Source of the DNA: Rhodothermales bacterium
GTDB lineage: Bacteria > Bacteroidota > Rhodothermia > Rhodothermales > VXPQ01
Direction: 5' to 3'
DNA: 35,122 nucleotides
Assembly: GCA_040904565.1 (NCBI GenBank)
Contig: JBBDTI010000049.1
Coordinates: forward strand, 1 to 35,122
The notes beneath the pieces were generated by a model. It was not told the DNA's origin, did no database searches, and saw nothing but the letters and a program-made list of their open reading frames with translations. A program made the translations under genes and the position numbers. Of the stretch, positions 815 to 19,788 are shown piece by piece; position 1 is the stretch's first letter; each line of letters opens with the position of its first letter.

Positions 815-1252
815 TTAGGTCATCTGAGGTCCTTTCTCATCGTCCTCCGAAGGCGGGATGATGGTTGCCTCGCCACCCATGGCGATGCGGTCTTCGTGGT
901 AGATGTAGACGCGGCCTTTTACGTGCTTATGCTTCTCCACCTTTTCGCTGATCTTGATTTCGACGGTGATTTCCGAGCCGACGGGCACGGGGCGTAAGAA
1001 ACGGCAGGAGATGGCGACGGCAATGCTTCCCGCGCCCGGGAAGTCTCGGCCCAGGACCTTGGAAATGATGCCCAGGAGCAGGACGCCGTGTACGATGGGT
1101 TTTCCGAAGCGGGTCGAACGGGCATATTCCTCATCTACGTGAATCGGGTTATCATCGCCCGTCAGGTCTGCGAACGTCCGTACGTCTTCAGCCGAAAGAA
1201 AGCGCGTGGTTGAGAACGAATCACCAATCTGTATGCTCTCGTACGTGTTCAT
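815..1252 (-). CDS. MaoC/PhaJ-like hotdog-fold (R)-enoyl-CoA hydratase/dehydratase
   Basis: FADLTGDDNPIH hydratase motif, PIVHGVLL and FLRPVPVG. Start placed at MNTYES (1252) rather than at the longer ORF start. Confidence 0.9.
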   Translation of the reverse strand: MNTYESIQIGDSFSTTRFLSAEDVRTFADLTGDDNPIHVDEEYARSTRFGKPIVHGVLLLGIISKVLGRDFPGAGSIAVAISCRFLRPVPVGSEITVEIKISEKVEKHKHVKGRVYIYHEDRIAMGGEATIIPPSEDDEKGPQMT

Positions 1253-1260
1253 CGCTGCGG

Positions 1261-1299
1261 ACTGTGGTGTGATACTGTGGGGTGATATCGTGGTAGGAT
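1261..1299. repeat. Three tandem 13-bp direct repeats upstream of the MaoC gene
   Basis: actgtggtgtgat / actgtggggtgat / atcgtggtaggat, read directly from the sequence. Confidence 0.7.
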
Positions 1300-1546
1300 A
1301 GAGCTTTCTAATAAACGAACCTCCCATGAGAATCGAAACCAGCGCAGGGTAGACACGGCATTCAGCGTGCCGGAACATCCACTCCAACCTCTTGTTTTCG
1401 TCCGTCCTTCACGGGGTCGATGCCTGCGGCGCCGCCTCATTCAGGCGGCATGCCTCGAGGGGTATGGTGTAGGCGTCGAACTTCAGGAGTCTGAGGCGGG
1501 TCCGGTAAGCAAGACGCAAAGGTGTAGGGTTTCCGGTTGAGCAACC

Positions 1547-2938
1547 ATGTCTCGCGACAAGCGCATTCTCCTCTTTGCACCGTACTTCCTACCGCGCCGG
1601 CGCGTCGGATCCATGCGTCCGTTTCGATTTGCCATTCATCTGCGGGAGCATGGATGGGATCCGACCGTCCTGACGATCGCGACGCCGGACCAGACGCTGA
1701 CGAAAAAGGAAGCGGATCTCCTGAATGGGGTTGCTATACGGACGGTGGACGCTCCGATGGACCGGACGACGAAGTCGGAGAGCCAGCTGGGGGCGGCATC
1801 TACCCCGCGATCGACGCGAGATGCAACCATCCTCGCGCGGCTCCTGAACACGATCGATCGGCAGTTCCCCGTCGATACGTGGTTGATATTGTTTGCTCTT
1901 CGATTTCGATCGATGGTTCGTCAGGTTCGGGAGGTCGACCCGCACGTACTCTGGGCGACGGGGGACCCGTGGTCCGGCCTCGTCGTCGGGCGCCGGCTCA
2001 GCCGGCGACTTCAGATACCGTACATCGCGGATTTCCGCGATCCGTGGACCCTCTCGGACGTCAGAACGGATGGACAATGGGACCTTTCGAGACGGGTGGA
2101 CCGCCGGTCCGAGCGGAGGGTGATTGCGTCGGCCGATCTGGTGATGTTTCAGGCCGAGCAGGTCGAGGCCATGTATCGAGCGCACTACGCGGACCTGGCG
2201 CCGCGGACGAAGACGATTCGAAACAGCTTCGACCCGTTGATCTTCGACGATCCGGTGTACGTGCCGGGGCAGGCGGCGCCTGAGGGGGGGATCCGGGTTG
2301 CGTCGCACACATCAGGTGATGGCACACGAGATGAAGGGGACGCTCGAAGAGATCTTCATATCGGATTTTTCGGACGCTTTCGTGAGATGTCACCTGCAAC
2401 GCTCATGATCGATGTCCTGTCGGACCTTCGCCGCCGGCACGGCTCTGCGTCGGGAAGCGTATTCGTCCACTCCTTCGGCCCGCTGAGCGCCGCCGATGCA
2501 GCATACGCCCGGTCGCTGGGCGTCGAAGATCTCTTTGTGGCACACAACGCCGTGCCTCTCCAGCAGTCCCTGTCGGTGTTGCGGCGCTTCGATCTTCTGC
2601 TCGTCAGCACCGAGCCTCGCCGCCGCCATATCATTCCGGCGAAGCTGTTCGAATACCTCCCGGCAGGTCGCCCCATTCTGTCCCTCTCCCGGAATCCGGA
2701 GGTGGACGGGATCCTGCGTCGCACCGGAACCGGCGTTCAGATGCTGGACCGTCACGCCGTGGCGGACCTGCTGGCCTCCTGTCTGGACGCTCTGGCGAAG
2801 GGGGAGGCGCTGCCCGTACCCTACGAGCCGGATGGCAGCGAGATCATGAAATATGACGCCGCCACGAGCACGGCTGAACTCTCCCGCGTCTGCGACGAAC
2901 TGCTTGCGTCGTCTGGGGCAGGCTCGTCAGCCGGGTAG
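1547..2938 (+). CDS. GT-B fold glycosyltransferase (GT4-like)
   Basis: N-terminal ILLFAPYFLP..VGSMR..HLREHGWDPTVLT, DFRDPW motif and C-terminal IPAKLFEYLPAGRPIL. Confidence 0.85.
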   Translation: MSRDKRILLFAPYFLPRRRVGSMRPFRFAIHLREHGWDPTVLTIATPDQTLTKKEADLLNGVAIRTVDAPMDRTTKSESQLGAASTPRSTRDATILARLLNTIDRQFPVDTWLILFALRFRSMVRQVREVDPHVLWATGDPWSGLVVGRRLSRRLQIPYIADFRDPWTLSDVRTDGQWDLSRRVDRRSERRVIASADLVMFQAEQVEAMYRAHYADLAPRTKTIRNSFDPLIFDDPVYVPGQAAPEGGIRVASHTSGDGTRDEGDARRDLHIGFFGRFREMSPATLMIDVLSDLRRRHGSASGSVFVHSFGPLSAADAAYARSLGVEDLFVAHNAVPLQQSLSVLRRFDLLLVSTEPRRRHIIPAKLFEYLPAGRPILSLSRNPEVDGILRRTGTGVQMLDRHAVADLLASCLDALAKGEALPVPYEPDGSEIMKYDAATSTAELSRVCDELLASSGAGSSAG

Positions 2939-4572
2939 ACGAACCGGTCGAGCATATGGCCATAGTCCGCGCTGCCGGGATCCGAGTCGTAGTGCCACTC
3001 CCACTGCTGAATCTCAATGCGCCGGATTCTATCGGGCTCCGCCGCGTGCCGATTCCACCGTTCTATGACGACGTCGAGGAACGCCTGCGTCTGATGCGAC
3101 TCGACCGGGTTGAACGCTCGGGCCAGTACCCGGCGAAATCGACCGTCCGACATCGCAGGCACGCTCTTCTCGATCGGTGCGCGTATGACGTCGCCCGAAT
3201 GAAGGTGCGCCAGAACCCGCTCGTAGACCACGGGCTCTGACCGTTTCTGGGAGAACATCTGCATGCCGGTAAACGGATAAAACTCCACGCGGAAGACCCA
3301 GCACGCCGTCACGACCACGACGACCGCCACGGTCAGGCGGCGTCCCGGATCCGCGCTTCGGGTCGGCGCCGGGCGATGGGGGGCAGCGGTGAAGAATCCA
3401 CGGCTCCGGAGTCCGGCCCCGATCTGCGCGAGAAGCCGGTCGAGCACCAGGATTCGATCGGAAGCCGCGCTCAGGATGGGCCGGAAGTTAAGATAAATGA
3501 GCTGCAGCAGTATGAGGTCGAAAAACAGAATATTCTGCAGCAGCAGGATGCCGACGTGCATCAAGAGCATCAGGACGGGCATGACCCACCTGGCCTTTCT
3601 CGAGAACAGTACGAGTCCGTATAGCAGCTCTCCCACGAGGGCGGAAAGCGCGAGCGCCTCGAACAACCAGGGCGGTGCCGTGGCGAGCTCCAGCGAGATG
3701 CTGAAGTCGAACTCCATGGGCCGAAGGGTGCTCTGAAACAGGATGAACTTGAAATTAGAGGCATCCCACCACGTAAGACCGCCATTGCGCAGCTTGCTGA
3801 GTCCGGCAGCGACGTAGGGCAGCGCCATGGTTGTCCACACGGCATAGCGAGCCCATCCAAAGCGGCGCGACGGTACGTCCGGCTCGACGGCCTCGCCACG
3901 TCTTCGCTGCCGGATCCGATCGATCGAAAGGCCGCGTCCGGAAGGCAGAAACGCAAGAACGGCCTGAAGGTAGAGTGCGAGAAGGCCCGTATGATAGAAC
4001 CAGGCGTACTGGCGGAGCCATCCCCCTAGAATGAGATACATCACGGCTCCAAACGGTACCGTCCACCGCGCCTTCCACCCGATCGCGCTGAGGAACAGGA
4101 CGAGAGCCGTGAACCACTTGAGAAACGTGAGAGCGCCTGCGGAGGCTGCAACGCTCTCGTAGCCGGGCAGGAGGGCGAGCAGGTGCATCACGCCGAGCGG
4201 CTGCATCATCTCCGCCGGCAGCGCTGCCGTACTGGCCGGATCTTCCCAGAGCGTACTGATGAGCAGGGTCGAGGAAACGAGCGCACGAATGGCCCCCAGG
4301 TCGGAGGGACGCGCATCCGGTACGATGCGTGCGGAAAAATCGGGCGACTTGAGCCCACGCACGAAAACGTAGCCCGCCGTTCCCGCGGCGAAGCCGTACA
4401 CGACGATACCGTACCACTCCCCCAGGAAAAAGCCAAGCGGACGATTCGAGATCGCCGGGATCAGTCCGGAGGCGTGGATCCACTCGAGGAGCGGCGGAAC
4501 CGCGGCGAACCCGGCTACCAGCCAGGCGATCGCAGACGCCGCGTACACATGCCATCCGGAGCGAGCGGACAT
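2821..4572 (-). CDS. HTTM-like (VKGC/SdpB-related) polytopic membrane protein with fused C-terminal extracytoplasmic domain
   Basis: Many hydrophobic segments. Motifs WFYH, LSID, YVAAGLSKLRNGGLTWW, GELL, MHVGILLLQNILFF and EFYPFTGMQMFSQ. Confidence 0.7.
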   Translation of the reverse strand: MSARSGWHVYAASAIAWLVAGFAAVPPLLEWIHASGLIPAISNRPLGFFLGEWYGIVVYGFAAGTAGYVFVRGLKSPDFSARIVPDARPSDLGAIRALVSSTLLISTLWEDPASTAALPAEMMQPLGVMHLLALLPGYESVAASAGALTFLKWFTALVLFLSAIGWKARWTVPFGAVMYLILGGWLRQYAWFYHTGLLALYLQAVLAFLPSGRGLSIDRIRQRRRGEAVEPDVPSRRFGWARYAVWTTMALPYVAAGLSKLRNGGLTWWDASNFKFILFQSTLRPMEFDFSISLELATAPPWLFEALALSALVGELLYGLVLFSRKARWVMPVLMLLMHVGILLLQNILFFDLILLQLIYLNFRPILSAASDRILVLDRLLAQIGAGLRSRGFFTAAPHRPAPTRSADPGRRLTVAVVVVVTACWVFRVEFYPFTGMQMFSQKRSEPVVYERVLAHLHSGDVIRAPIEKSVPAMSDGRFRRVLARAFNPVESHQTQAFLDVVIERWNRHAAEPDRIRRIEIQQWEWHYDSDPGSADYGHMLDRFVYPADEPAPDDASSSSQTRESSAVLVAASYFMISLPSGS

Positions 4573-4587
4573 ATAGGTCCCCGGTTG

Positions 4588-5340
4588 CTACGATTCCTTC
4601 TGAAATACGGCGACGATGTGCGCGCCGCGCCGCGGTGACACGTCGCTCGTGAAACGGTCGTGGAGACCGAGCAAGACGTGTTTGAACGGCCCGAAGTTCA
4701 GGTTCACGTAGCGATTGGCCAGCAGTTTCGAAACAATCTGATAGAGGAGATTTCGGCGTGCCGTAACGTAGTGAACCTCTCGTACGGTGTAATCGGGGAA
4801 GTAGGACGCGAGAAGGTCCAGGTCGTAGTGCCGGAAATGCTTCTCGATCACCGGTCGGACCGTCGAGGGCACCGAGACGATCAGGTGTCCGCCCACCACG
4901 AGGAGACGGTCGATCTCCGAGCAGAACGCGTGGATATCCGCGTCAGGTATGTGCTCGAAGGTCTCGACGGTTGTGATAAGATCGAAGGAGGCGTCGTACC
5001 TAGCGAGATCCTTCTCGAGAAACTGCACGTCAGGCAGGTCGTGCCCGAATGCCTTTGCGAACTGTATCGCCTTGCCGTCCACGTCGATGCCTACGGCCTG
5101 CCGTCCGGTCAGGAGATCCGTGTGGCGCGCCAGATGATTGAGCAGGTACCCGTCGCCGCATCCTACATCGAGCACGCCCTTCCCGATATACTTCGCAACG
5201 AGCTCCATGACCTTTTTCATGTAGGTCAGGTAGTCGAGTCCCCAGTCCAGATTGCGAACGAAATCTTCTCGTTCGAGATCGACGAGATAGTGGTAGGGGA
5301 ACCGGTACTGTGCCGCCTGGATGTCGGTCTTATCTCTCAT
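4588..5340 (-). CDS. Class I SAM-dependent methyltransferase
   Basis: Motif I VLDVGCGDG, GID, FDLITTVETFEHI and GGHLIVSVP. Confidence 0.9.
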   Translation of the reverse strand: MRDKTDIQAAQYRFPYHYLVDLEREDFVRNLDWGLDYLTYMKKVMELVAKYIGKGVLDVGCGDGYLLNHLARHTDLLTGRQAVGIDVDGKAIQFAKAFGHDLPDVQFLEKDLARYDASFDLITTVETFEHIPDADIHAFCSEIDRLLVVGGHLIVSVPSTVRPVIEKHFRHYDLDLLASYFPDYTVREVHYVTARRNLLYQIVSKLLANRYVNLNFGPFKHVLLGLHDRFTSDVSPRRGAHIVAVFQKES

Positions 5341-5362
5341 GCGTACGACGTGCTGCGTGGGG

Positions 5363-6253
5363 TCAGGTATAACGGATACTGACGCGTTCGATGCCGTGCA
5401 TCCAGGGCTGGCGCGCCGTCAGGGCGTCGAGCCATGCCGCCCAGGGCAAGGCCAGCAGTACGAGCTCGTAGACGGCCAACGTGAAGAAAATATTCATCAC
5501 GAGATAGATGCCGATGTGTAATGCGATGACGGCCAGAAGGGCCGGCGTGCGCGTCCGCTTCCACCAGGCGAGAAAGGCAAACAGCTCCGTCAGGAGTCCG
5601 ACCGTAAGAAATGCCGTGGCCGTACCCTGTCCGCTCAACACCAGCTCCTGTAGGACATTGAGGTCGTACGTGCCCGTCTTCGCCAGGTTGTCGACGCTCT
5701 TCTCATAGACCCACAGCCAGAGATGCCGGCCGTCCGACCAGTTTAACCCCGTTCCTATCAACTTGGAAATGCCGGCGAGCGTGTAGCCGAGTCCGACGAA
5801 GAAGTACGTGAACCCGAGCGTAAAGCGCCGCCGGTGCAGTCCGTCTCGGAAGACCAGCAAGGCGATGGCGAGGCCGAGGAGCGTCATCCCAAGCATGTTC
5901 GAGCTATGGGGGATCTCTCCGAGTGAAAACCGCGCGGCATACTGCAGATGAAGGAGCAAAAACGCGCCGAGGTAGGCCCCTCTCCACAGCCGGAAAAACC
6001 CGATGACGACAAGCACCGTGATCGCTCCGGCATTGGCCAGCGGAAGCCGGCCGTCGAACATGAAGCTCACGTCGACGTAGCGAGCCATCCCGAGCGGAAG
6101 CACGACGTCAGAGATGCGCAGCGTATACAGGCCCCATTCCCACGCGAGCTTGACGGAGGCCAGGGCGACGAACAGCTCGAAGATCTTAAAAAATATCGCT
6201 TCGCCCGCCGACGGCTTGCGCTCGTAGTCGAAAAGATTGTCAAGCAGTTCCAT
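5363..6253 (-). CDS. HTTM-like membrane protein (transmembrane half only)
   Basis: Motifs EIPH, YTLAGISKLIGTGLNWSDG, TELF and LHIGIYLVMNIFF occur in the same order as in the 583-aa protein. Confidence 0.7.
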   Translation of the reverse strand: MELLDNLFDYERKPSAGEAIFFKIFELFVALASVKLAWEWGLYTLRISDVVLPLGMARYVDVSFMFDGRLPLANAGAITVLVVIGFFRLWRGAYLGAFLLLHLQYAARFSLGEIPHSSNMLGMTLLGLAIALLVFRDGLHRRRFTLGFTYFFVGLGYTLAGISKLIGTGLNWSDGRHLWLWVYEKSVDNLAKTGTYDLNVLQELVLSGQGTATAFLTVGLLTELFAFLAWWKRTRTPALLAVIALHIGIYLVMNIFFTLAVYELVLLALPWAAWLDALTARQPWMHGIERVSIRYT

Positions 6254-6265
6254 ACACTCGACCGG

Positions 6266-6733
6266 TCAACGGGGCAGGTGGTCGCTAGACATCGTTTCGT
6301 CGTGCGTCAGCAGGACGTACGGCTCGAAGGAAAGAATCACCAAATCTGACGCGGAAATTCGGCCGCGGGCTCGCAAGACGAGCAGATGACGCCGGTCCAG
6401 CTCGTCCTCACCGAACATCTTGCGGAGCGCGGCGAGGCGGTCGTCATCCCATATTTCCGTCTTGGATACGAAGTTGGCCAGGTCGATGTGGTCGATCCCG
6501 TGTTGCGCCAGCGGATAGGGATCCCCGGGGAGATGCTCTAGACGGGTGGACTCCCACCGCACGCTGTCGTCCGGAACCTCGCGTACGACGGCTCGGGACC
6601 AGGGGATACCGCCCTGAGAGAACATGGGATAGATGCTAAACGGCCAGAACTCACCCAGATTCGTCGCTACGAGAAAGGCATAAACCAGGAGCGTGCCGAG
6701 CAGCACACGTAGGGACTTCTTCTGGCGGGTCAC
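6266..6733 (-). CDS. Membrane-anchored ~155-aa protein, probable partner (C-terminal half) of the HTTM protein
   Basis: 3' part of ORF 6266..7615, with probable GTG start (MTRQKKSLRVLLGTLLVYAFLVAT). One TM helix, then EFWPFSIYPMFSQ. Ends 12 bp before the next gene. Confidence 0.7.
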   Translation of the reverse strand: MTRQKKSLRVLLGTLLVYAFLVATNLGEFWPFSIYPMFSQGGIPWSRAVVREVPDDSVRWESTRLEHLPGDPYPLAQHGIDHIDLANFVSKTEIWDDDRLAALRKMFGEDELDRRHLLVLRARGRISASDLVILSFEPYVLLTHDETMSSDHLPR

Positions 6734-6985
6734 GGGACGTAGCTGGACGATGGCTGCATTTACGATGACGCGTTTACCGCCGCGGCGGTCGGTCACGCCG
6801 GGCGACCGGTGGATCCGGCGCCGTCCGACGCGCTGAACCGTCGTTCTCCTACCTAAGACGAACGTCGACGCTCGAGGTTCAGGCTCCGGATTGACTCGCC
6901 ATTTATTCGTAATGTCTCGTGGACGCGGGTCCGTGTCCGGCCCGCTACCTTCTCCACGTGCTTGATTCACGCCTATCCATCCTAT

Positions 6986-8008
6986 ATGAACGTACGCGAG
7001 ATACGAAAACGCTGGAGCGACTTCACTTCGACGCGGCAGGGTGAGCGCCTGGTGAAGGGAATGCGGGCGCTCTTTCTGGCGGTCATTGTAGGCGTGCTGC
7101 TCTATCAGGTGTCCGGCATCGGATGGAGCCGCGTCCTGTCGTCCCTGCCGACGCAGCCCGCGTTCTACCTCCTCGTCCTCGCCATGTACTTCGTGCTGCC
7201 GGTAACGGAGTCGCTGATCTACGGACGGCTGTGGGGGCTGAGGCCGATGGAGTGTCTCGGCGTCATGATTCGCAAGCGGGTTTTGAATGTGGATGTCGTC
7301 GGATATTCCGGGGAGGTCTACCTCGTCCTCTGGGCTAAAACGCGCGTACGCGAGGGTACGGCGTTCGTTGTAGGCACGGTGAAGGACAACCTGATCGTCT
7401 CCGCCGCCTCGTCCCTGATCGCGGCCGCCATGCTCATCGGCATCCTGCTCGCTGCCGGACAGATTCCGCTTGCCGATGTTGTCGATGTGCCAAGCCCATT
7501 CTACGTGAGCCTGGGTGCCATCGCCGCCGTGTTCCTGGGTGTCGTCGTCTATCGATTTCGACACGTCATCTTCTCTCTCTCCCGCCGTACGCTCGCCGCC
7601 CTGTCGGCCGCCCACGTCGTACGGTTTTTCGTCGGATACGTGCTACAGGTCGCGGCCTGGTGGATCGTCATCCCGACAGCCTCGTTCCAGACATGGGCCA
7701 TCCTCCTCGTTCTGTTCGTCGTCATTAATCGCATTCCCTTCTTGCCGTCAAGCGACCTGGTCTTCGTGAGTGCCGGAGCGGGATTGACGCCTTTGCTCGA
7801 CGTACCCGTGGCGCCCGTCGTAAGCATGCTGCTGGTTCGAAGTGCCGCCGACCGTCTGTTGAACCTCGTTTTCTTCACTTCGAGTGTATGGTTGGAACGT
7901 CATGCGATGTCTACCACAGAGGATGAAGAAGTGGACGCTCGAGCCATCCAACAGGAGCTGGAAGGCGTTGGCAGCGTGGACGCGCCTCCGGATGATTTGA
8001 ATAGTTGA
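6986..8008 (+). CDS. UPF0104 / lysylphosphatidylglycerol-synthase-TM (flippase-like) membrane protein
   Basis: About 8 hydrophobic helices, LN..VGYSGEVY motif resembling the family N...GE signature, late RIPFLPS and R..D elements. Start at ATG 6986. Confidence 0.6.
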   Translation: MNVREIRKRWSDFTSTRQGERLVKGMRALFLAVIVGVLLYQVSGIGWSRVLSSLPTQPAFYLLVLAMYFVLPVTESLIYGRLWGLRPMECLGVMIRKRVLNVDVVGYSGEVYLVLWAKTRVREGTAFVVGTVKDNLIVSAASSLIAAAMLIGILLAAGQIPLADVVDVPSPFYVSLGAIAAVFLGVVVYRFRHVIFSLSRRTLAALSAAHVVRFFVGYVLQVAAWWIVIPTASFQTWAILLVLFVVINRIPFLPSSDLVFVSAGAGLTPLLDVPVAPVVSMLLVRSAADRLLNLVFFTSSVWLERHAMSTTEDEEVDARAIQQELEGVGSVDAPPDDLNS

Positions 8009-8095
8009 TCAACACGGTGACCTTGGCATCGAACTTGTTTCTCGTAGTATCCTCAGGTTGCGCCATTCGATAGGCCGTGATTACAGGACCTGGTT

Positions 8096-8797
8096 ATGAA
8101 GTCGTTATTCGTCCTTTGTTTGCTATTTCTGACGATGGAGCCGAATGGCTCGACGTATCCTTGGGGGGACAGCTCCGTCGTCGTAGCCGACTTCGAGGGC
8201 GATACGCCGGGAGCTTTGCCTTCCGGATGGGGATATCTTTCGAGCCGAAATCGTCGCTTCCAGTCGGCCGTGGCCGTAATGGATCCGAATCAGAAATTCG
8301 AAGTGCACGCGGAAGAGGGAAACCGCTTCGTACGCGCCTATACGAAGGGCGAAGCCCAGCGTATTTCTCTGCGCGCTGAGGCGCTGGACTGGAAATTGTC
8401 GGAGTATCCGCGCCTGCGGTGGTCGTGGCGGGCCCTTCGTCTACCGGAAGGAGCACGAGAGGATCGCGTCAACGATTCGGGAGGTGCCATCTACGTATCG
8501 TTTTCGAAGACGGATTGGTTGGGCCGGCCGCTGAGCATCAAATATACGTACAGCTCCACGCTGCCCGTAGGCACGGTCGTTTCTACGGGGAACGTCAAGA
8601 TCATCGTGGCGTCAAGCGGCCTGAACGGCATCGGCAGCTGGCTAACGGTAGATCGAAATGTGGTAGATGATTATCGGAGGGTTTTTGGGTCCGATCCGCC
8701 CGACGAACCGTTTACCATCACGCTGTGGAGCGACTCGGACAATACCGGTTCGATAGGGGAAGTCGATTTCGATGATATAGAGATCGTGACGGAGTGA
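8096..8797 (+). CDS. DUF3047 domain secreted/periplasmic protein
   Basis: Signal-peptide-like N-terminus. YPRLRWSWR, ND.GGAIYVSF, IKYTYSS, W..VDRNVVDDYRRVFG and SDSDNTG motifs. Confidence 0.8.
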   Translation: MKSLFVLCLLFLTMEPNGSTYPWGDSSVVVADFEGDTPGALPSGWGYLSSRNRRFQSAVAVMDPNQKFEVHAEEGNRFVRAYTKGEAQRISLRAEALDWKLSEYPRLRWSWRALRLPEGAREDRVNDSGGAIYVSFSKTDWLGRPLSIKYTYSSTLPVGTVVSTGNVKIIVASSGLNGIGSWLTVDRNVVDDYRRVFGSDPPDEPFTITLWSDSDNTGSIGEVDFDDIEIVTE

Positions 8798-8877
8798 GGA
8801 TTGGGATCGCCGAACGGATGCGCCGTACACGCAGCCTTCGACCGGCGCATAACGCAAGAGCTAGATAGACGAGCGAG

Positions 8878-11433
8878 ATGAGCCGTATTTTTGATGTATT
8901 TCGCCCCGTCATTCGGGTGGTCGTGAGACGTGCCTGGGCGGTGGTCGTCGTGGCTGCCCTGATGACGGTCGTTGGATTCTATTTTGCCCGCCAGCTCAGC
9001 ATCGATACGGACTTCTCGAACCTCATTCCGTCCGACTACGCCAGCGTTCAGGCACTGGAAGCGCTGCGCGAAACCGTGGGCAGTGAGACGACGGCCGAAG
9101 TCGTGATCCGGAGTCCATCGTTCGACGCGAATAAGGCATTCGCTGAGGCATTTATTCCGCGGGCGCTCGAGCTGGAGGACCCCGCAACGGGTGAGCCGTA
9201 TCTGGCCCGCGTCGATTACGAGAAGGATACGGAATTCCTCGAGCGGAACGCCCTCTATTTCGCAACGAGCGCCGAGCTGGACAGCCTGGAGAGATACCTG
9301 CGGGATCGAATACGGGACGCGAAACTGGAGGCCAACCCGTTCTATTTCGACCTCGATGACGAAGAGGACGCCGCCGAAGATGAGGGCTTCGACATCGAGC
9401 GGGGCCTTCACGAGGTCTACGATCAGGTTGTCGGGAAGCGCTATCCCATAAACGACGATAGCACGATCATGGTGCTTCGTTTCTATCCGACGGGCTCCCA
9501 GACCAATATCGGTTTCATCGAAGGTCTCTACGACGACCTTGAATCCCTCGCCGGCGAGCTCGACCCGGCATCGTACCACGCGGAAATGGACGTGATCCTG
9601 GCGGGGCGCCTGCTCAGGCAGCTCGTAGAGATACAGGCCATCACTGGAGACGTGGTCACGTCGTTTGCGGCCGGCGTCGCGTCGGTACTTCTGGTCGTTC
9701 TCCTGTATTTCTTCTACAAGGGATATACGGCTCGGGCCGGACATCGCTTTGCCGGCCGGGTCTTCCTTACGCAGGTCGCACGCACGCCGGCCATGGCCGT
9801 GTTGATAGGCGCGCCACTCCTGATGAGTCTGGCGTGGACGTTCGGTGTGGCGTACCTGACGTACGGAACGCTGAACCTGATGACATCTACACTGGGTCTG
9901 GTGCTGTTTGGGCTCGGTATCGATTACGGAATACACTTCTACGCTCGATACTCGGAGGAGCGACGTTCAGGTTTGAGCGTGGCGGAGGCGGCAGAGGTGA
10001 CGTTCGGCACGACGGGACAGGCGATAGCCGTGGGTGCCATGACGACGGCGGGGGCGTTATACGTGCTCATGTTGGCAGACTTTCGCGGGTTCAGCGAGTT
10101 TGGATTTATTGCCGGAACGGGCGTTCTTTTCGCACTCGTATCCATGACGGTCGTCATGCCCGCGCTGCTCGTCCTTTTCGAACGCCATCGCCTGCTCAAT
10201 ATGGAATCCAACGAGGGGGCCCAGTTGTCGGCGGACGGTTTTCGGAGGCGGCTGCCTGGAGCGCGTGCGATCATTCTCGTCAGCGTGGCGGCCGTCGTGG
10301 CAGCCCTGGTATTTCTTCCCCGGGTGGGGTTTGAGTATGACTTCGGTGCCCTCGAGCCGGAATACGAGTCGTACGAGGCGAAGAGAGATCTCGTGCGTGA
10401 GGTGTACTCCAGCCGGGGCAGCAATCCGGCCTACGTCCTGGTCGACGACCCCGCTGATGTACGCGAGGTGGTCGACGTGATCGAGCGCCGTATGGCCGAA
10501 GACACGCTCTCCCCTACGATCGACCGCGTCGAGACGCTTCAGGACCGCTTTCCGACGACCGACGAAGGACGTCAAGAGAAGCTCGATCACATCGCGGATA
10601 TACGAGAGCTGCTCTCCGATCCACTCGTGCAGGCAGACTTGGAAGGGGATACCGATTTAGCACGTATCGAGCGGGCGGCCCAGACGACGGAGCCGCTGAC
10701 GGTCGATCAGGTCCCCGAGAGCATTCGCAATCAGTTCACATCGAAGTCGGGCGCGGTCGGCGGTTTTGTAATGATCTATCCAGCCGTGGGTCTGTCGGAC
10801 GGTCGCCTTTCGATGGCGTTTGCCGAGGACGTGGGAACGATCGTTACGCCGCAAGGAGTCAGTTATCATGCGGGGTCCACCTCCCTCGTCGCCGCCGACA
10901 TGCTGCGCCTGATGTTGAAGGAGGCGCCGTACATGATTGCCCTCACCTTTCTGATCGTCGCCCTCCTGATGTGGGTCAACTTTCGGTCGATTCGATGGGC
11001 GGCACTGGCGACCGTACCGCTCGTAGTGGGCGTTCTCTGGATGCTTCTGACGATGGAAATGATCGGACTGAGATTAAACTTCTACAATCTCGTCGTGCTG
11101 CCCGCCGTGCTGGGCATCGGTAACGATGCCGGCGTCCACCTCGTGCACAGGTATCGGGAGGAGGGAGAGGGCTCGATGCTCCGCGTACTGCGCTACACCG
11201 GTGAACATATTACGATGGGCTCCCTGACGACCATGATCGGATTCGGAGGCCTCATGTTGAGCTTTCATCCCGGCCTTGACTCGATCGGCCGTCTGGCCGT
11301 TGTCGGGATCGGGATGACGCTTCTGGCCGCCATGATCTTTCTGCCTGCCCTGTTGCAGTGGCTCGAGGACCGGGGGGATGCACCGGCGTCCGACGTCGGC
11401 GAACGGCCTGACGAAGTGATGGTGAAGCCGTAG
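8878..11433 (+). CDS. MMPL/RND family lipid exporter
   Basis: 851 aa with two repeats of 1 TM + large loop + 5 TM. LSIDTDFSNLIP, GLGIDYGIHF and GIGNDAGVHL motifs. Confidence 0.9.
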   Translation: MSRIFDVFRPVIRVVVRRAWAVVVVAALMTVVGFYFARQLSIDTDFSNLIPSDYASVQALEALRETVGSETTAEVVIRSPSFDANKAFAEAFIPRALELEDPATGEPYLARVDYEKDTEFLERNALYFATSAELDSLERYLRDRIRDAKLEANPFYFDLDDEEDAAEDEGFDIERGLHEVYDQVVGKRYPINDDSTIMVLRFYPTGSQTNIGFIEGLYDDLESLAGELDPASYHAEMDVILAGRLLRQLVEIQAITGDVVTSFAAGVASVLLVVLLYFFYKGYTARAGHRFAGRVFLTQVARTPAMAVLIGAPLLMSLAWTFGVAYLTYGTLNLMTSTLGLVLFGLGIDYGIHFYARYSEERRSGLSVAEAAEVTFGTTGQAIAVGAMTTAGALYVLMLADFRGFSEFGFIAGTGVLFALVSMTVVMPALLVLFERHRLLNMESNEGAQLSADGFRRRLPGARAIILVSVAAVVAALVFLPRVGFEYDFGALEPEYESYEAKRDLVREVYSSRGSNPAYVLVDDPADVREVVDVIERRMAEDTLSPTIDRVETLQDRFPTTDEGRQEKLDHIADIRELLSDPLVQADLEGDTDLARIERAAQTTEPLTVDQVPESIRNQFTSKSGAVGGFVMIYPAVGLSDGRLSMAFAEDVGTIVTPQGVSYHAGSTSLVAADMLRLMLKEAPYMIALTFLIVALLMWVNFRSIRWAALATVPLVVGVLWMLLTMEMIGLRLNFYNLVVLPAVLGIGNDAGVHLVHRYREEGEGSMLRVLRYTGEHITMGSLTTMIGFGGLMLSFHPGLDSIGRLAVVGIGMTLLAAMIFLPALLQWLEDRGDAPASDVGERPDEVMVKP

Positions 11434-11440
11434 AGGTTGA

Positions 11441-12607
11441 CTAAGCCGGAACGGCCTCGGGCATGAAGGCCGGCTCGATCACGGATTCCATGATGTCCAC
11501 GTATTTTTGCGCGACGGCGTGCCAGCTGAAATGCCGTTCGACATATCGGGCTGCGCGGGACCGCGCAGCCTCCAGTGCATCATGTTCGTGGTAATACCGC
11601 ATTACGGCCTCCGAGAACTCCCAGGCGTTACCGCTGGATACGAGGTGACCGTTCTCGCCCTCTTCAATCACGTCCGTAATGCCTTCCAGGCTTGACGCGA
11701 TCGTCGGGAGACCGCAGACGCCGGCCTCGAGCATCACGACGCCAAACCCCTCCATGTCGCCCGGTACGGGGATATTCGGCATCACAAACAGGTCGGCGCC
11801 CCTGTAGAGCAACTGTAGATCTTCTTCGGAGACCCGGCCGAGCAGTTTGACCCGGTCCCGGGCGTTGCCGGCGCGTGCCGCCGCAGCGATCTCGTCGGCT
11901 TCGGGCCCGTCGCCGGCCAGCCAGTAATGTACGTCCTCGGGAAGAAGCGGAAGTACGTTCTCGATGAACCAGGCGAACCCTTTGCGCTTCACCTGCCGGC
12001 CGACGCTGCACAGGAGTAGACCGCGGTCCGGCACCGGTCGGCCGTTTCCAAAGCGGTGGAGAAGCTCTGCTCGGACGTCCTTCTTCGAAGGCGTCGTGCC
12101 GAATCGCCCCACGGATACGCCGTTCGGGATCACATACACCTTGTCAGAATGCAGTCCGCGTGCGATGCAGGCATCGCCCGTTGCCCGACTGACGGGAAGC
12201 ACGGCATCGAGCGCGTCGAATATATGCGGTACCAATGTCTGGTACGGCGCCAAATCCATCGTCACGTCTCGACCGTGAACGATGGCCGCAGCGTACACCC
12301 CGTTCCTCTCCAACAAAGGCTTCAAAAGGGCCGCGAGCGATGCCGTCACCATGGAAGAGAACAGTACCACATCCACCTCTCCACGTTGCACCACGCGACG
12401 GATCTCGAAGAGGGCTCTCAGCAGGAAAGGTCCCGTCTTCACGTGTGTCCACTGCCAGGATGAGCGTAGGACGAGGGATGAATACTCGACGTCGTCGCGT
12501 GACGAGAGGGCGGCGTGCAATTCCGTCGATACGCGCTGCATCCCACCGATATTCGACAGTGGGCGGTCGGCCGGTGGAAAAGAATGTGAGACGAAGAGTA
12601 CGCGCAC
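11441..12607 (-). CDS. GT4 glycosyltransferase (PimA/PimB-like)
   Basis: MRVLFVSHSFPP..GGMQR, HGRD, VGRQVKRKGF and EGFGVVMLEA (EX7E). GTG start. Confidence 0.9.
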   Translation of the reverse strand: MRVLFVSHSFPPADRPLSNIGGMQRVSTELHAALSSRDDVEYSSLVLRSSWQWTHVKTGPFLLRALFEIRRVVQRGEVDVVLFSSMVTASLAALLKPLLERNGVYAAAIVHGRDVTMDLAPYQTLVPHIFDALDAVLPVSRATGDACIARGLHSDKVYVIPNGVSVGRFGTTPSKKDVRAELLHRFGNGRPVPDRGLLLCSVGRQVKRKGFAWFIENVLPLLPEDVHYWLAGDGPEADEIAAAARAGNARDRVKLLGRVSEEDLQLLYRGADLFVMPNIPVPGDMEGFGVVMLEAGVCGLPTIASSLEGITDVIEEGENGHLVSSGNAWEFSEAVMRYYHEHDALEAARSRAARYVERHFSWHAVAQKYVDIMESVIEPAFMPEAVPA

Positions 12608-12625
12608 GGGTAAGGGGATGCCGGC

Positions 12626-13834
12626 TTAGCTGTGAACAGAAGCGGTCGGTGGTGCAGACTCGTAGAAACCGATAGCGGATCCGTCGCCAGAATGAGAGGC
12701 GCCCGGGCGCAGGATCTCGTCGTAATACCCGATCATGTTCGACAGCACGGTGCTCCAGCTATAGTCGCGTGCACGAAGCTCGGCCTCGGCTCCCATCCCG
12801 CGGCGCTTAGGATCGTCGGCGATCAGAAGACGTACGGCATCCTCGAAGCCCTTCACGTTACCCGGCGGCACGAGAAGTCCCGTCTCCCCATGCTCGACGA
12901 GCGTACGGCTGCCCGTCGCGTCAGCGCAGACGGTCGGGATTCCGGATGCCATCGCTTCCAGCGTCACATTGCCGAACGTCTCCGTATCGCTCGGGAACAG
13001 AAACAGGTCGGATGAGGCGTACGCGCGCGCCAGCTCCTTCCCTTCCAGATAGCCGGTAAAGACCGTATCCGGCAGACGTGCTCGCAATTCGTCGAGCGCC
13101 GGACCGTCGCCTACGATCATGCTCCGATGTTTGACGCCTTTCCGCTGAAGGGACTCAATGACGTCGGCGAAAACACCCAGGCCTTTTTCCCAAACGAGGC
13201 GCCCGATGAAGCTCACCAGCACGGCGTCGTCCTCTACTCCTCGTTCACGTCGCCACTCCAGTGACCGATGCGACGGGTTGAACCGGGCCGTGTCTACTCC
13301 ACGCGCCCAACGGCGGAGACCGCGATCGATTCCGTGTGAATGCAGAACGTCCTCGATCGAGGAAGAAGGGACGTAGACGTGACGGCAATGGCCGTAAAAC
13401 ATGGCCAGGTATTTCCACATAAGCCGTTCCAGTGCGCCAACGCCGTAATACTTCAGATACGAGCTGAAGTGGGTGTGATACGAGGCGACGGCCGGAATTC
13501 CTTCTCGTTCAGCGAGACGCAACGCCTGGAAACCGACGAGGTCAGGCGTTGCGATGTGAAAGAGATTCGGACGGAACGATCGGATGATGGACCGCGCGGA
13601 GGGTGTGAGTCCGACCGAAATCCTGTATTCCGGACGGCCGGGCACCGGAATGGACGGTACCGGAATCAGCGTACCGGCATGCTCGACCGGTGGATCGTCG
13701 ACCGTCGGGGCCACGACGAGCGTCTCTGTGTCGTGGTCCTCCAGATAGGCAACGAGGCGATTGAGCGTAAGGGAGACCCCATCGGCGATGTGGTTGTAGG
13801 CACCGGTGAAAATGACGACGCGACGTTCCGTCAT
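12626..13834 (-). CDS. GT4 glycosyltransferase, MgtA/SqdX/Agt-like lipid-acceptor subfamily
   Basis: DGVSLTL, HIATP, SYHTHF, WARGVD..RFNP, GRLVWEK and ETFGNVTLEAMASG. Start uncertain (13834 or 13885). Confidence 0.85.
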   Translation of the reverse strand: MTERRVVIFTGAYNHIADGVSLTLNRLVAYLEDHDTETLVVAPTVDDPPVEHAGTLIPVPSIPVPGRPEYRISVGLTPSARSIIRSFRPNLFHIATPDLVGFQALRLAEREGIPAVASYHTHFSSYLKYYGVGALERLMWKYLAMFYGHCRHVYVPSSSIEDVLHSHGIDRGLRRWARGVDTARFNPSHRSLEWRRERGVEDDAVLVSFIGRLVWEKGLGVFADVIESLQRKGVKHRSMIVGDGPALDELRARLPDTVFTGYLEGKELARAYASSDLFLFPSDTETFGNVTLEAMASGIPTVCADATGSRTLVEHGETGLLVPPGNVKGFEDAVRLLIADDPKRRGMGAEAELRARDYSWSTVLSNMIGYYDEILRPGASHSGDGSAIGFYESAPPTASVHS

Positions 13835-14280
13835 CGTCCGGTAACGCGCTCGCGTCCGATCTAATACTGCGATGTCTGTTCCCATATATGATACTGCCGG
13901 GATTCGACAGTGAAGGTTTACTAGATACTGATTCACGCGCGCCGCACGCATCACGATACGGCGGGCACCTTCGCACTCATTGAGTCGGCTGGCCCGACGT
14001 ATCGTTACGCGCTCCTCTACGGGACCTCCGGAATTAAAGATTCTAAGGAATGACGACGCGGCGCCTCGCAGAACCTATCCTCCCTGGAATTCATTCCGAA
14101 CTCACTCCCCGAATGCGATGCCCTCGATCTCTCCGTGCGGATCGATCGGCGGCGCGACGGATCGGGAAACCCGCCTTGAATAGATTAAGCCGCATGCAGG
14201 GCCGAGGAAGTAACACGCCGGGTCGAAATTGTCGGGTCGGAGAGCCTTCAGAAGAACGCACCGGTCTTCCGCGGGTTGGA

Positions 14281-17160: not shown

Positions 17161-17399
17161 TTCAGCGCGTGGAACTGCATTCAAACGTACAACCAACTTC
17201 AACGCGGCTGGTGATGCAATGATGCATAATTGTCGCACCGCAATGTCGCATCGTGCTGGAGATCGGCTCGACGGAACTGGGCGTTCTCGGCCTCAGTAGC
17301 AACCATCGGCCGCATCTCCACGCTTGGTTGTACGGGACTTTCGTCCGGGTCCGCGACGGACCGTCAACCGTCCAACCGCCAACCGCTCCACCGTCTTAC

Positions 17400-19538
17400 A
17401 TGGAATTTCTTAATCCGCTGGCTCTTGCCGCGCTTGCCGCGGCTGTCATTCCGCTGATTATCCACCTGTTTAATTTCCGGCGGCCCCGGAAGGTGGATTT
17501 CAGTTCCCTGGCGTTTGTGAAGGAACTCCAGAAGTCGACGATGCGACGCGTGCGCATCAAGCAGTGGCTGCTGCTCGTCCTGCGCATCCTGGCTATCGCA
17601 TGTCTGGTGCTGGCCTTCGCAAGGCCGACCCTAACGGGCAACGTAGCCGGGGCGGTGGGAGGGCGTGCCGCCTCGTCGGTTGCCATCGTTATCGACAATT
17701 CGCCGTCCATGAGCCTCCGCGACGCGGAAGGCGAGTATCTGCGCCAGGCCAAGGACATTGCCGCCGGCATCATCGATGCGCTGGCCGACGGCGACGAACT
17801 GTTTCTGGTGCCGACGTCCGGAGTCGGCGCGACGTGGGATCGATTTTCGACTACGGGCGCGGCCATGGAGGCCGTCGAGCGCATCGAGGTTCGTCCGGGC
17901 GGACGTACGGTACCGGAAGCGACGGCCGAAGCGGGGCGCGCGCTGGAAAGCGCCGCCCATATTAATCGAGAGATTTACGTGATTTCCGACCTGCAGGAGT
18001 CCGCCATGCCCGACTCCACTGCCTCCGACGGCGGTGGGGGCACCTCGACGTATCGAACGTATCTGCTGCCGATCGGCGACCGGATTCATGCGAATGTGGC
18101 CGTCACCGACGTACAGGTGGAAAGCCGCATCCTCGAGATGGGGCAGCCGATGCGCCTTTCGGCGACGCTGGTCAACTACGGCACGGACCCGATCGAGGGC
18201 GACGTGGCGAGCGTGTTTCTCGAAGGGCAGCGTCTCGCGCAGACCACCGTCGACCTCGAACCCCGCGTTCCGACGACGGCGCACTTCACGGCCTCGCCCC
18301 AGCAGCGGGGATGGTTGTCCGGCATCGTTCAGATCGGAGATGACGGCTTCGTTTTCGACAACGAGCGCTATTTTACGGCGCACGTTCCCGACCGCCGATC
18401 GGTGCTCGTCGTGCGCGGTGATGGGCAGGACGCCGGCTATCTACAGCTCGCCTTTTCACCCGATCTCGGGCGAGATCGGGTGGCTTTTGACGTCGAGGCC
18501 ATTCCAGAGACCGGACTTCCGGCCGCTGACCTGAGCCGATTCGACGTCGTCGTTCTCGTCGGGCCACGCTCCCTGTCGACCGGCGAGGTCGCATCACTTG
18601 AGAGGTACGTCTCGGCGGGCGGGGGCCTGTTCATCACCCCTCCGAATGAGCCGGTGCCTTCGGAATACGACGACCTGCTCGGAGTGCTCGGTGGCGGCTC
18701 CCTCTCCGGTTTCAGTGGATCCGTAGAATCGAATCGCAGCATCGCGGCCTTCGAGCGCGTGGAGCTGGAGCACAATCTCTTTGAGGGCATGTTCCGCGAC
18801 CGACCCACGGACTCGGAGCGGGCCGTGGAGAGCCCGGACATCTACCGAGCCGTCAACTACGCGCCGGGGCCGGGCAACGAACAGTCGCTTATCAGCCTTT
18901 CAAACGGCTATCCCTTTCTCCAGGAGATCCGGCACGGACGCGGCGTCGCGTTCCTTATGGCCGTAGCCCCCAACAGGATGTGGAGCGACCTCCCGGTGCG
19001 CGGTCTCTTCATTCCGTTGATGTATCGGACCATGTACTATCTCTCCGCATCCGAATCCGTTGCCGGCGAACAGCTAACGGCGGCATCTCCCGCGGAACTG
19101 CGCGTTCCGCGCGTTTCGGATGCGGCGCAGCTCCGTATCGTGAGTCCGGATGGGACGGAATATGTGCCCGAGCAGCGGGATCTCTTCGGGGCCTCCCTGC
19201 TGACGATCGACGGTGCCGTGATCGAGCAGCCCGGCATCTACGACGTACGTGCCGGAGAGGACGTCGTAAGGCGCGTCCCGGTGAACGTGGACGAGGCCGA
19301 GTCTGACCTATCCACGCTGGAGGATGAGGAGGGGCGTGCCCGCCTGGCCTCTTCGCTTGGCTGGGATGTCGACCTCATTCCGGCAGGCGGACGCGCACCT
19401 GGCGATGTCGTGGCCTCCGTCGCACAACAGCGAATGGGGGTCGAGCTGTGGAACCTGTTCCTGCTCCTGGCCCTCGCGTTTCTGATTGCTGAAACCGTCG
19501 TTGCGAAGCGGTGGCGCCCGGAAGGCGTGCCGGCTTAG
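17400..19538 (+). CDS. BatA-domain / vWA membrane protein
   Basis: MEFLNPLAL..IPLIIHLF..FSSL..WLLLVLR..LAFARP BatA N-terminus, MIDAS DNSPSM and ISD, DN.RY, and C-terminal ELW..AE TM. Confidence 0.9.
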   Translation: MEFLNPLALAALAAAVIPLIIHLFNFRRPRKVDFSSLAFVKELQKSTMRRVRIKQWLLLVLRILAIACLVLAFARPTLTGNVAGAVGGRAASSVAIVIDNSPSMSLRDAEGEYLRQAKDIAAGIIDALADGDELFLVPTSGVGATWDRFSTTGAAMEAVERIEVRPGGRTVPEATAEAGRALESAAHINREIYVISDLQESAMPDSTASDGGGGTSTYRTYLLPIGDRIHANVAVTDVQVESRILEMGQPMRLSATLVNYGTDPIEGDVASVFLEGQRLAQTTVDLEPRVPTTAHFTASPQQRGWLSGIVQIGDDGFVFDNERYFTAHVPDRRSVLVVRGDGQDAGYLQLAFSPDLGRDRVAFDVEAIPETGLPAADLSRFDVVVLVGPRSLSTGEVASLERYVSAGGGLFITPPNEPVPSEYDDLLGVLGGGSLSGFSGSVESNRSIAAFERVELEHNLFEGMFRDRPTDSERAVESPDIYRAVNYAPGPGNEQSLISLSNGYPFLQEIRHGRGVAFLMAVAPNRMWSDLPVRGLFIPLMYRTMYYLSASESVAGEQLTAASPAELRVPRVSDAAQLRIVSPDGTEYVPEQRDLFGASLLTIDGAVIEQPGIYDVRAGEDVVRRVPVNVDEAESDLSTLEDEEGRARLASSLGWDVDLIPAGGRAPGDVVASVAQQRMGVELWNLFLLLALAFLIAETVVAKRWRPEGVPA

Positions 19539-19788
19539 AGGGCGCTCCAACCAGGAACGATGCGGCGGCGATCGCATAGGCGGCGGCGCGGCCACGTCCT
19601 AAGACCTTATTTATAGCGGGCTTGGATCTGACGTGCCGCGGATGAGGACGCTGCCGCGACGGACGGCGGGCATGCAACAGTCGGCCCGCTTAAGAGTTAA
19701 TACTATGACAGTTGTTTAATACGGTCGGCCTCCCTAGCTTCCGGGCCGATGCGTGCAGTGATTACGTAGAACAAGCCGGCAGTAGCCT

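Follow-up and report, generated by a model that had tools for sequence, protein, structure and literature searches.

Several described systems resemble parts of the locus considered here, a group of ten genes in a Rhodothermales bacterium which combines glycosyltransferases, an MMPL-family pump, a DUF3047 protein and membrane enzymes of the HTTM family. In gpgSDF of Pseudomonas aeruginosa and hexSDF of Clostridioides difficile, a glycosyltransferase is joined by a deacetylase and a UPF0104 flippase candidate, according to the available part of the description (PMC12713373). HpnN and the MlaC-like protein HpnM have been proposed to form a lipid shuttle, with HpnL as a UPF0104-like protein, again in the part of the source that is available (PMC12324291). 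For HTTM proteins, the accessible portion of a preprint describes a split arrangement in which a one-helix DUF5819 partner completes an architecture similar to that of gamma-glutamyl carboxylase (GGCX), the vitamin K-dependent enzyme of blood clotting, and a fused bacterial carboxylase, MloH, whose substrate is a natural-product intermediate (bioRxiv 10.64898/2026.08.19.745780). The locus lies on one whole contig of 35,122 bp (G000:C49, GenBank JBBDTI010000049.1; the window), which belongs to a 4.0-Mb genome in 95 contigs with a completeness of 94.9%.

Like gpgSDF and hexSDF, the locus places a cytoplasmic glycosyltransferase of family 4 (GT4) for a lipid head group beside a polytopic flippase-like gene, and the best family match of one such enzyme, GT4b, is GpgS, the glycosyltransferase of the described part of the gpg system (PMC12713373). 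Unlike these operons it has no deacetylase, its GT4b scores 170 bits against a family cut-off of 480, and its flippase-like gene g6 is not a member of UPF0104 at the sequence level; it also adds two or three glycosyltransferases, a pump of the resistance-nodulation-division (RND) type, DUF3047 and a cassette of HTTM genes. With HpnN, HpnM and HpnL, as far as they are covered by the available text, it shares the set of an HAE3-type RND pump, an MlaC-like periplasmic protein and a flippase-like protein beside a lipid glycosyltransferase (PMC12324291). It differs from them in that its own genome has no match to squalene-hopene cyclase, its pump scores far under the HpnN cut-off, and the hpn clusters carry no DUF3047 in that part of the source (PMC12324291). 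Among solved structures, GT4b and GT4a come nearest to PimA and PimB' of the mycobacterial phosphatidylinositol mannoside pathway, and the pump g8 belongs to the same MMPL family as the mycobacterial MmpL glycolipid exporters in the portion of that literature available; by contrast with these systems, the similarity reaches only E 1e-15 to 1e-16 and the bacterium is a diderm from a different phylum.

The HTTM genes have counterparts of their own. The product of g2 shares with GGCX a fold (Z 20.7) as well as a lysine and a histidine equivalent to K218 and H160, and g4 together with g5 resembles the split arrangement of an HTTM core and a one-helix partner as the accessible text of the preprint presents it; unlike in these cases, sequence identity between g2 and GGCX is 12-14%, g5 has no Pfam match, and the genomic context consists of glycosyltransferases and lipid export, a setting which the literature consulted does not report for bacteria. 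Giant viruses provide a further parallel in the form of VKOR plus carboxylase-like epoxidase-desaturase modules, in which an HTTM/epoxidase-like domain that keeps K218 is proposed, in the available part of the source, to modify lipid rather than protein (bioRxiv 10.64898/2026.03.26.714578). These modules are themselves a hypothesis, and they differ in that the viral partner is a desaturase, whereas here the neighbours are glycosyltransferases and an RND pump and the VKOR homologue is encoded elsewhere in the genome. The Wzx/Wzy-dependent polysaccharide pathway differs more widely, as phosphoglycosyl transferase, Wzx, Wzy and a chain-length or export protein are all missing among the ten window genes.

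The reading that we favour, and to which we give an even chance, is that the locus makes a glycosylated membrane lipid, probably on the basis of a phospholipid head group, and sends it outwards, and that it includes a menaquinol-dependent HTTM tailoring cassette. What has been observed is the content and conservation of the genes, the folds and the conserved residues; from these we infer each biochemical step, what lipid is made and what the HTTM enzymes act on. GT4b, which is GpgS/PimA-like, would add the first sugar to a membrane lipid on the cytoplasmic face, and the PimB'-like GT4a and GT4N would lengthen the glycan. The flippase-like g6 could then bring the glycolipid to the periplasmic leaflet, where the HpnN-like MMPL/RND pump may pull it out of the inner membrane and hand it to two exported carriers, DUF3047 with its sugar-binding-module fold and MlaC as binder of the lipid tail, before a TolC-like protein would receive it at the outer membrane. 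HTTM2 with its partner and the HTTM-fused protein would use menaquinol and oxygen to create a strong base at the periplasmic face and thereby modify the exported molecule, for example by carboxylation, while the soluble methyltransferase, which depends on S-adenosylmethionine (SAM), would work on the cytoplasmic side. The substrate of the HTTM enzymes is the weakest step of this scheme.

Part of the evidence for this reading is the recurrence of the same genes around HTTM2 (g4; 5363-6253, minus strand), a divergent HTTM-core membrane protein of 296 aa recognised by a profile-profile match to the g2 family. HTTM2 has 417 homologues; it occurs in 83 of 201 sampled genomes of the organism's class, corresponding to 38 of 74 genera, and in 35 of 301 genomes of a phylum-wide sample, every one of which comes from families of that class. 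Neighbourhoods of ±10 kb around g4 were compared in 32 loci from 31 genomes with 15 family codes. The partner gene g5 is adjacent in all 32 with gaps of 0-171 bp, and the MMPL orthologue is found in 23, DUF3047 in 22 and g6 in 20 of the loci, with at least one of these three in 28 and all three in 14. GT4a was seen in ten loci, GT4b in eight, GT4N in seven, and g2 and g3 in one each. HTTM2 and its partner lie no more than 3 kb from a glycosyltransferase homologue in 26 loci, from an export or flippase gene in 25 and from either in 30. With the same queries and thresholds, 2.5%, 0.5% and 2.6% of the bases of the window's own genome lie that close to the respective genes, which serves as a rough baseline. 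Since the gene order around g4 differs between families, the linkage is not merely inherited synteny.

A genome of the KSB1 lineage extends this picture beyond the class. By tblastn it holds seven of the ten genes, and extension of the contig adds GT4b (50% identity) and GT4a (41%), which brings the set to nine of ten, all but g6, for which no match was found at this locus; GT4N scores 348 bits there. The order is GT4b-GT4a-MMPL-(DCC oxidoreductase)-(c7)-GT4N-(Wzx-like)-DUF3047-(MacB/FtsX-like), followed by partner-HTTM2-methyltransferase-HTTM-fused, the last four being an intact block in the order of the window, and the GT4b-GT4a pair lies directly upstream of the MMPL gene. The occurrence of the same gene set with differing order in other families of the class and in the KSB1 genome implies clustering beyond chance. 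An earlier note on this DNA, made by a model from the letters alone, had named conserved co-localisation as support for its proposal of one glycolipid system, and such co-localisation with varied gene order is what the class families and KSB1 display. A 325-aa protein of KSB1 (c54/c7) was considered as a g6 homologue and rejected, as it is soluble and unrelated to g6. The same lineage has a second locus (L053, G001:C251:9000-28999, about 9196-15904) with a CDP-alcohol phosphatidyltransferase, a Wzx-like protein, an MMPL protein and a single protein made of MlaC and DUF3047; its MMPL protein is the best match to g8, with 38% identity.

Neighbourhoods were also collected from the side of g2, of which 18 homologues were aligned; with this alignment 48 loci were drawn from 185,579 species genomes and then searched by tblastn with the window proteins. 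Only three of the 48 hold the full ten-gene set, and all three are metagenome-assembled genomes (MAGs) of Rhodothermales which share the flanking genes too and are thus uninformative as synteny. Among the other loci, a partial set was found on one 6.4-kb contig and seven had weak GT4 matches only. Acidobacterial g2 genes are flanked by GT4s in five of eight loci.

Comparison with genomes devoid of HTTM2 separates the locus into two parts. Fourteen loci were fetched around DUF3047 genes of the g7 type from genomes without an HTTM2 match, two of which (L087, L088) belong to a sister genus within the family of the window. Their order, uvrA-GT4b-GT4a-MMPL-DUF3047-g6-GT4N-MaoC, is the arrangement of the window minus the four cassette genes, with a clean gap between g6 and GT4N, and the g1 orthologues there (54-55% identity) lie directly beside g6 and open the base operon. 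This arrangement implies a base unit which consists of the GT4N-g6-DUF3047-MMPL operon and the convergent GT4b-GT4a pair; the HTTM cassette of partner, HTTM2, methyltransferase and HTTM-fused gene is an insertion, or was lost in the sister genus. The base locus is widespread in the class, with DUF3047 in 170 of 201 genomes versus 83 for HTTM2, which shows that the pump module needs no HTTM cassette. The single ten-gene system of the earlier note therefore survives as a conserved functional neighbourhood, but not as one indivisible unit: the cassette is missing from L087 and L088, and the HTTM-fused and methyltransferase genes occur in one of the 32 class loci.

Other families carry a fuller base locus in which TolC-like, MlaC, c7, (Wzi-like), g6, a family 2 glycosyltransferase (GT2), DUF3047 and MMPL genes are assembled. 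MlaC and the TolC-like gene are present in eight, c7 in seven, g6 in ten and an MMPL gene of at least 600 bits in nine of the 14 DUF3047 loci, and MlaC and the TolC-like gene each occur in 10 of the 32 g4 loci. In the window's own genome, an operon of HAD, TolC-like, MlaC and c7 genes sits between rho and ftsZ on contig C89 (L102), the TolC-like (536 aa), MlaC (231 aa) and c7 (325 aa) genes covering 6044-9594 on the minus strand. As the same trio is placed within the DUF3047/MMPL locus of other families, the system extends past positions 1547-13834 of the window, to which the earlier note had confined it. The protein c7 is soluble, about 330 aa long, and belongs to a cluster automatically named nucleotide-diphospho-sugar transferase; it is probably a GT-A-type glycosyltransferase, by this automatic cluster name only.

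The three glycosyltransferases of the locus have matches of differing kind. GT4N (g1; 1547-2938, plus strand; 463 aa) has Pfam matches to N-terminal domain models only, Glyco_trans_4_4 with 38 bits and Glyco_transf_4 with 30 bits, and its sequence finds no match among solved structures. GT4a (g9; 11441-12607, minus strand), a GT4 enzyme by Pfam, has PimB' as nearest solved relative (PDB 3okc, E 2e-16 over residues 65-375). PimB' adds the second mannose to phosphatidylinositol mannoside. GT4b (g10; 12626-13834, minus strand) scores best with the NCBIfam model of the GlcNAc-phosphatidylglycerol synthase GpgS (NF053787, 169.7 bits, with the next model at 86), and among solved structures it matches MshA (E 5e-19) and PimA (E 2e-15) over its full length. 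The call of lipid-type GT4 enzymes made in the earlier note is borne out in so far as GT4a and GT4b are nearest to GpgS, PimA, MshA and PimB', but the scores stay below the family cut-off and do not confer family membership; for the ceramide- or capnine-type anchors that it also considered, and likewise for hopanoid-type ones, there is no support. A paralogue of GT4b with 50% identity lies on another contig of the genome (L103, G000:C58, 9623-10933, minus strand) beside large FG-GAP/ASPIC repeat proteins.

The pump g8 (8878-11433, plus strand) is an MMPL/RND transporter with a Pfam MMPL score of 111 bits against a threshold of 20.5. Its best named NCBIfam models are HpnN (TIGR03480, 285.7 bits, cut-off 751.85), HAE3 (TIGR00921, 203.1 bits, cut-off 351.9) and the sterol transporter BstA (201 bits). 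Judged by these matches, g8 appears to be an HpnN/HAE3-like lipid pump, which agrees with the MMPL lipid exporter postulated beforehand. The same scores, HpnN at 286 bits and BstA at 201, could be taken to mean that the pump exports a glycosylated isoprenoid lipid of the hopanoid, sterol or carotenoid type, as in hpnI/hpnL/hpnN, all the more as the set of glycosyltransferase, UPF0104-like protein, RND pump and MlaC-like protein corresponds to that of hpnI, hpnL, hpnN and hpnM in the available part of their description (PMC12324291). We consider this highly improbable: a domain of squalene-hopene cyclase (SQHop_cyclase_C) has no match in the own genome (94.9% complete), the HpnN score stays well below its cut-off of 752, g6 matches neither HpnL nor any other NCBIfam model, and the glycosyltransferases of the locus are GT4 enzymes whereas HpnI is a GT2.

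The glycolipid pathway favoured here needs a step across the inner membrane, for which g6 (6986-8008, plus strand) is the candidate. It is a polytopic membrane protein with seven hydrophobic segments, and its likeness to flippases is one of predicted fold only. An ESM Atlas model resembles a cluster automatically named TIGR00374 family with a TM score of 0.83 and a cluster consisting entirely of PF03706 members with 0.67/0.68 over 297 residues, predicted models being compared with predicted models in both cases. By contrast, g6 and three orthologues have no Pfam match even at E<=1, g6 has no NCBIfam match, a genome-wide search with PF03706 returned two other genes and not g6, and when 34 sequences of the g6 family were compared by hhalign with 25 canonical PF03706 proteins from relatives, the probability was 0.3%. 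The label flippase-like/UPF0104 is thus weakened: g6 may be flippase-like, and is not a sequence-level member of UPF0104.

DUF3047 (g7; 8096-8797, plus strand) is an exported protein which matches its Pfam family (PF11249) with 101 bits against a threshold of 27. Its AlphaFold2 model is a β-sandwich (pLDDT 91) and in a VIA comparison reaches Z 15.5 to the β-sandwich domain of glucuronyl C5-epimerase and Z 11-12 to the carbohydrate-binding modules CBM11, CBM16 and CBM30. The family comprises 1406 representative clusters. Among the best 150 DUF3047 representatives, 15 have at least 400 aa and ten of these 15 carry an N-terminal MlaC domain, a fusion which is also found in the second KSB1 locus. 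That a lipid-tail carrier and a sugar-binding fold are combined in one protein, beside a lipid pump, is the strongest single hint at a glycolipid cargo. In the literature searched, with subscription journals and supplements lying outside the search, DUF3047 was found only as a name in a metagenome correlation cluster. The DUF3047 genes of the class fall into two groups of Pfam scores, about 200-265 and about 100-130 bits, with g7 in the lower one, and many genomes hold both, sometimes in tandem.

The four cassette genes comprise two HTTM enzymes, a small protein and a methyltransferase. The HTTM-fused protein (g2; 2821-4572, minus strand) narrowly passes the Pfam HTTM model (PF05090, 29.4 bits, cut-off 27.7). 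With its AlphaFold2 model (pLDDT 84.7), the top 16 Foldseek matches are all GGCX, and in the VIA comparison all 16 chains with Z>=8 are GGCX (Z 14.1-20.7) while the next fold has Z 6.7; the best superposition has a root-mean-square deviation (rmsd) of 4.4 Å over 315 residues. Sequence and profile searches of solved structures did not find GGCX, which was detected by the fold search alone. A canonical HTTM protein encoded on contig C95 aligns with GGCX at E 4e-32, which places its K168 and H110 on K218 and H160; g2 K260 and H194, both invariant in 18 sequences, fall on K168 and H110, and g4 K164 falls on g2 K260 in an hhalign comparison of g4 with the g2 family (probability 94%, E 9e-8), although g4 has no Pfam match itself. 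The residues equivalent to the catalytic lysine are invariant in both the g2 and the g4 alignments. Through this transitive mapping, the catalytic lysine of GGCX appears to be kept in g2 and g4. In the accessible part of one source, K218 acts as the base which removes a proton from vitamin K hydroquinone (bioRxiv 10.64898/2026.03.26.714578). The own genome encodes MenA, which means that a naphthoquinone is available as cofactor, and its use by the HTTM enzymes is plausible; it further encodes a VKOR homologue away from the locus. The canonical HTTM protein of C95 (L001, G000:C95:4691-8458) scores 287 bits with PF05090 and is part of a 1176-codon open frame, its N-terminal 280 residues aligning with human GGCX.

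The partner g5 (6266-6733 or 6266-6796, minus strand, depending on which position, 6733 or 6796, serves as the GTG start) begins with a single membrane helix, carries the invariant motif GEFWPFSIYPMFS and has a domain of about 120 aa; it has no Pfam match. It shares with the part of g2 that follows the HTTM domain a helix and a subsequent motif, EF(W/Y)PF..MFS; the shared stretch amounts to 16 columns. Homology with the C-terminal domain of g2 gained no support (BLASTP E 0.037 over 13 residues; hhalign probability 6% over 16 columns). The name HTTM partner draws on its adjacency to g4 in all 32 loci and on this 16-column likeness to g2, and is weaker than first given. No longer or fused forms of HTTM2 were found, which is weak evidence. 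The methyltransferase g3 (4588-5340, minus strand) is a class I SAM-dependent enzyme according to five Pfam models (Methyltransf_25, 11, 23, 12 and 31; E 1e-13 to 3e-16), has no membrane segment and accompanies g2 in locus L055 and in KSB1 only. In a related Rhodothermales MAG, an extra TylF-type O-methyltransferase gene is placed between the methyltransferase and the HTTM-fused gene (L002, 9127-9915, plus strand), and genes of the Methyltransf_24 family recur in six further loci.

The separable nature of the cassette raises the question of whether it belongs to the glycolipid genes at all. It may instead mature or modify an exported peptide or protein, as GGCX and LMF1 do and as does the published HTTM protein that has a small partner, and have landed in an envelope locus or become co-regulated with it. 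In agreement with this, the cassette is missing from the otherwise identical sister-genus locus, the g2 family stands alone in 36 of 48 loci across phyla, and HTTM proteins of known substrate act on peptides, as far as the available text of the source reports (bioRxiv 10.64898/2026.08.19.745780). Moreover, fusions with a DCC thiol-disulfide oxidoreductase domain are frequent among g2 homologues (PF04134; e.g. P0023, P0031 and P0037), and a free-standing DCC gene is part of the KSB1 locus, while none was found in the own genome. This has to be set against the proximity of HTTM2 and partner to glycosyltransferase or export genes within 3 kb in 30 of 32 loci, in varying order and versus a baseline of 2.6%, the joint transfer of the whole gene set to or from KSB1, one g2 homologue (P0045) that is fused to a GT4, and the GT4-flanked acidobacterial g2 genes at five of eight loci. 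HTTM2 and its partner contain no cysteine, which makes a thiol-redox role unlikely for both, and the open reading frames listed for the locus include no candidate gene for a precursor peptide. We therefore regard an unrelated cassette as unlikely.

A number of results weigh against a glycolipid pathway with an HTTM tailoring step. Kinship among the sampled genomes means that the counts given above overstate the evidence, DUF3047 is far more widespread in the class than HTTM2, and in 36 of 48 loci, drawn from many phyla, the g2 family has none of the other cluster genes beside it. At the level of single proteins, GT4b remains below the curated GpgS cut-off of 480 bits, g8 below the cut-offs of all its nearest named families, and g3 below those of every NCBIfam model; g6 fails the family and profile tests described above, and no deacetylase like GpgD or HexD is found by Pfam and NCBIfam among the ten genes. 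The mapping of g2 K260 and H194 on the C95 protein is a weak middle link (BLASTP E 0.2). Known or proposed substrates of HTTM proteins are, with one viral hypothesis as the exception, peptides or proteins in the available parts of the two preprints (bioRxiv 10.64898/2026.08.19.745780, 10.64898/2026.03.26.714578), and that the HTTM enzymes act on a glycolipid is pure inference. Lastly, Wzx-like flippases, present in six of 32 class loci and in KSB1, and a Wzi-like protein, present in seven of 32, are typical of lipid-linked glycans.

These last two proteins lead to another possible product, a lipid-linked surface glycan similar to a capsule, an extracellular polysaccharide or an O-antigen. Here an oligosaccharide would be assembled on a polyprenyl or other lipid anchor and exported by the flippase, DUF3047 would bind the glycan, and the RND pump and outer membrane proteins would put it in place. 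The Wzx/MOP-type flippases of the KSB1 locus and six class loci fit such a product, as do the outer-membrane Wzi-like protein of seven loci, the carbohydrate-binding-module fold of DUF3047, the TylF/Methyltransf_24 O-methyltransferases of the sugar type in L002 and six loci, and the presence of three to four glycosyltransferases per locus. Yet an initiating phosphoglycosyl transferase, Wzy, Wzz, Wza and an ABC exporter are not found by Pfam among the ten genes of the window. Both the pump and MlaC are members of families for lipid transport, and the enzymes nearest to GT4b and GT4a attach sugars to the head groups of phospholipids. The second KSB1 locus even joins the pump and the MlaC-DUF3047 protein to a CDP-alcohol phosphatidyltransferase, a phospholipid enzyme. 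A surface glycan is accordingly judged to be an improbable product. The statement that no Wzx is present holds for the ten window genes, among which Pfam and NCBIfam revealed no Wzx, Wzy, ABC, phosphoglycosyl-transferase or nucleotide-sugar families, but it does not hold for relatives and KSB1, where Wzx-like flippases and the Wzi-like protein occur.

Returning to a glycosylated membrane lipid as the product, the HTTM step can be put in a more specific form. In bacteria of this class and in the KSB1 lineage, carboxylase-like HTTM enzymes that use menaquinol and oxygen at the periplasmic side might alter an envelope glycolipid while it is being carried to the outer membrane, maybe by carboxylation, with the DUF3047 or MlaC carrier as an alternative target. 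This proposal is tentative, and we think it likelier to be wrong than right. For the remainder, the locus is of a known kind, in which lipid head groups are glycosylated and a flippase candidate is combined with export by an RND pump; the unusual addition is the carboxylase-like cassette, and a first functional hypothesis for DUF3047 is gained. The combination of HTTM genes, glycosyltransferase, MMPL and DUF3047 was not described in the literature searched, in which subscription journals and supplements were not included.

In the window, the ten genes form four blocks which are bounded by a MaoC-like dehydratase gene (815-1387, minus strand) and uvrA (14281-17238, minus strand). All ten tightly packed genes of the earlier annotation exist at or near the positions it gave. 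Gaps measure 12-22 bp within the minus-strand operon, 80-87 bp within the plus-strand operon and 18 bp within the GT4 pair, while the convergent genes g8 and g9 are 7 bp apart. The 3' ends of g1 (plus strand) and g2 (minus strand) overlap by 118 bp (2821-2938), which is unusually long for a convergent pair, and the pairing recurs in L055. A divergent intergenic region (6797-6985) separates the HTTM cassette from the g6-g7-g8 operon; a scan for consensus promoters and terminators, including this region, gave no more sites than in shuffled sequence. An open reading frame of 449 codons (6266-7615) was rejected as a real gene, being mostly an antisense artefact over g6, and only its last ~155-176 codons represent the partner.

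The MaoC-like gene next to GT4N scores 88 bits with Pfam MaoC_dehydratas. Orthologues of this MaoC-like (R)-hydratase/dehydratase lie no more than 10 kb from HTTM2 in 14 of the 32 class loci, where their neighbours are differing members of the cluster depending on the family. The gene is thus a possible associate of the locus and may be part of the lipid pathway rather than a bystander. On the other side of the ten genes, the region 14281-22203 with uvrA, a BatA/VWA protein, an HflX-type GTPase and a CBS-domain protein is apparently unrelated to the locus.

The recurrent fusion with MlaC and the sugar-binding fold together provide the first concrete hypothesis for DUF3047, which, if the HTTM enzymes do modify an envelope glycolipid or its carrier, would be the half of a periplasmic glycolipid shuttle that binds the sugar head group. 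In that case the HTTM enzymes would represent the first role of the vitamin K-dependent carboxylase fold in a lipid pathway, and also its first role in envelope biogenesis. Two such carboxylase-like enzymes are found in a variable cassette beside lipid and glycan genes, and the sister genera with and without it constitute a natural experiment in which a bacterial substrate of the fold could be sought. Lipidomics and genetic work are within reach, since the core is present in cultured members of the class. The locus can be seen as a compact candidate route for the delivery of special lipids to the outer membrane in diderm bacteria beyond the model proteobacteria.

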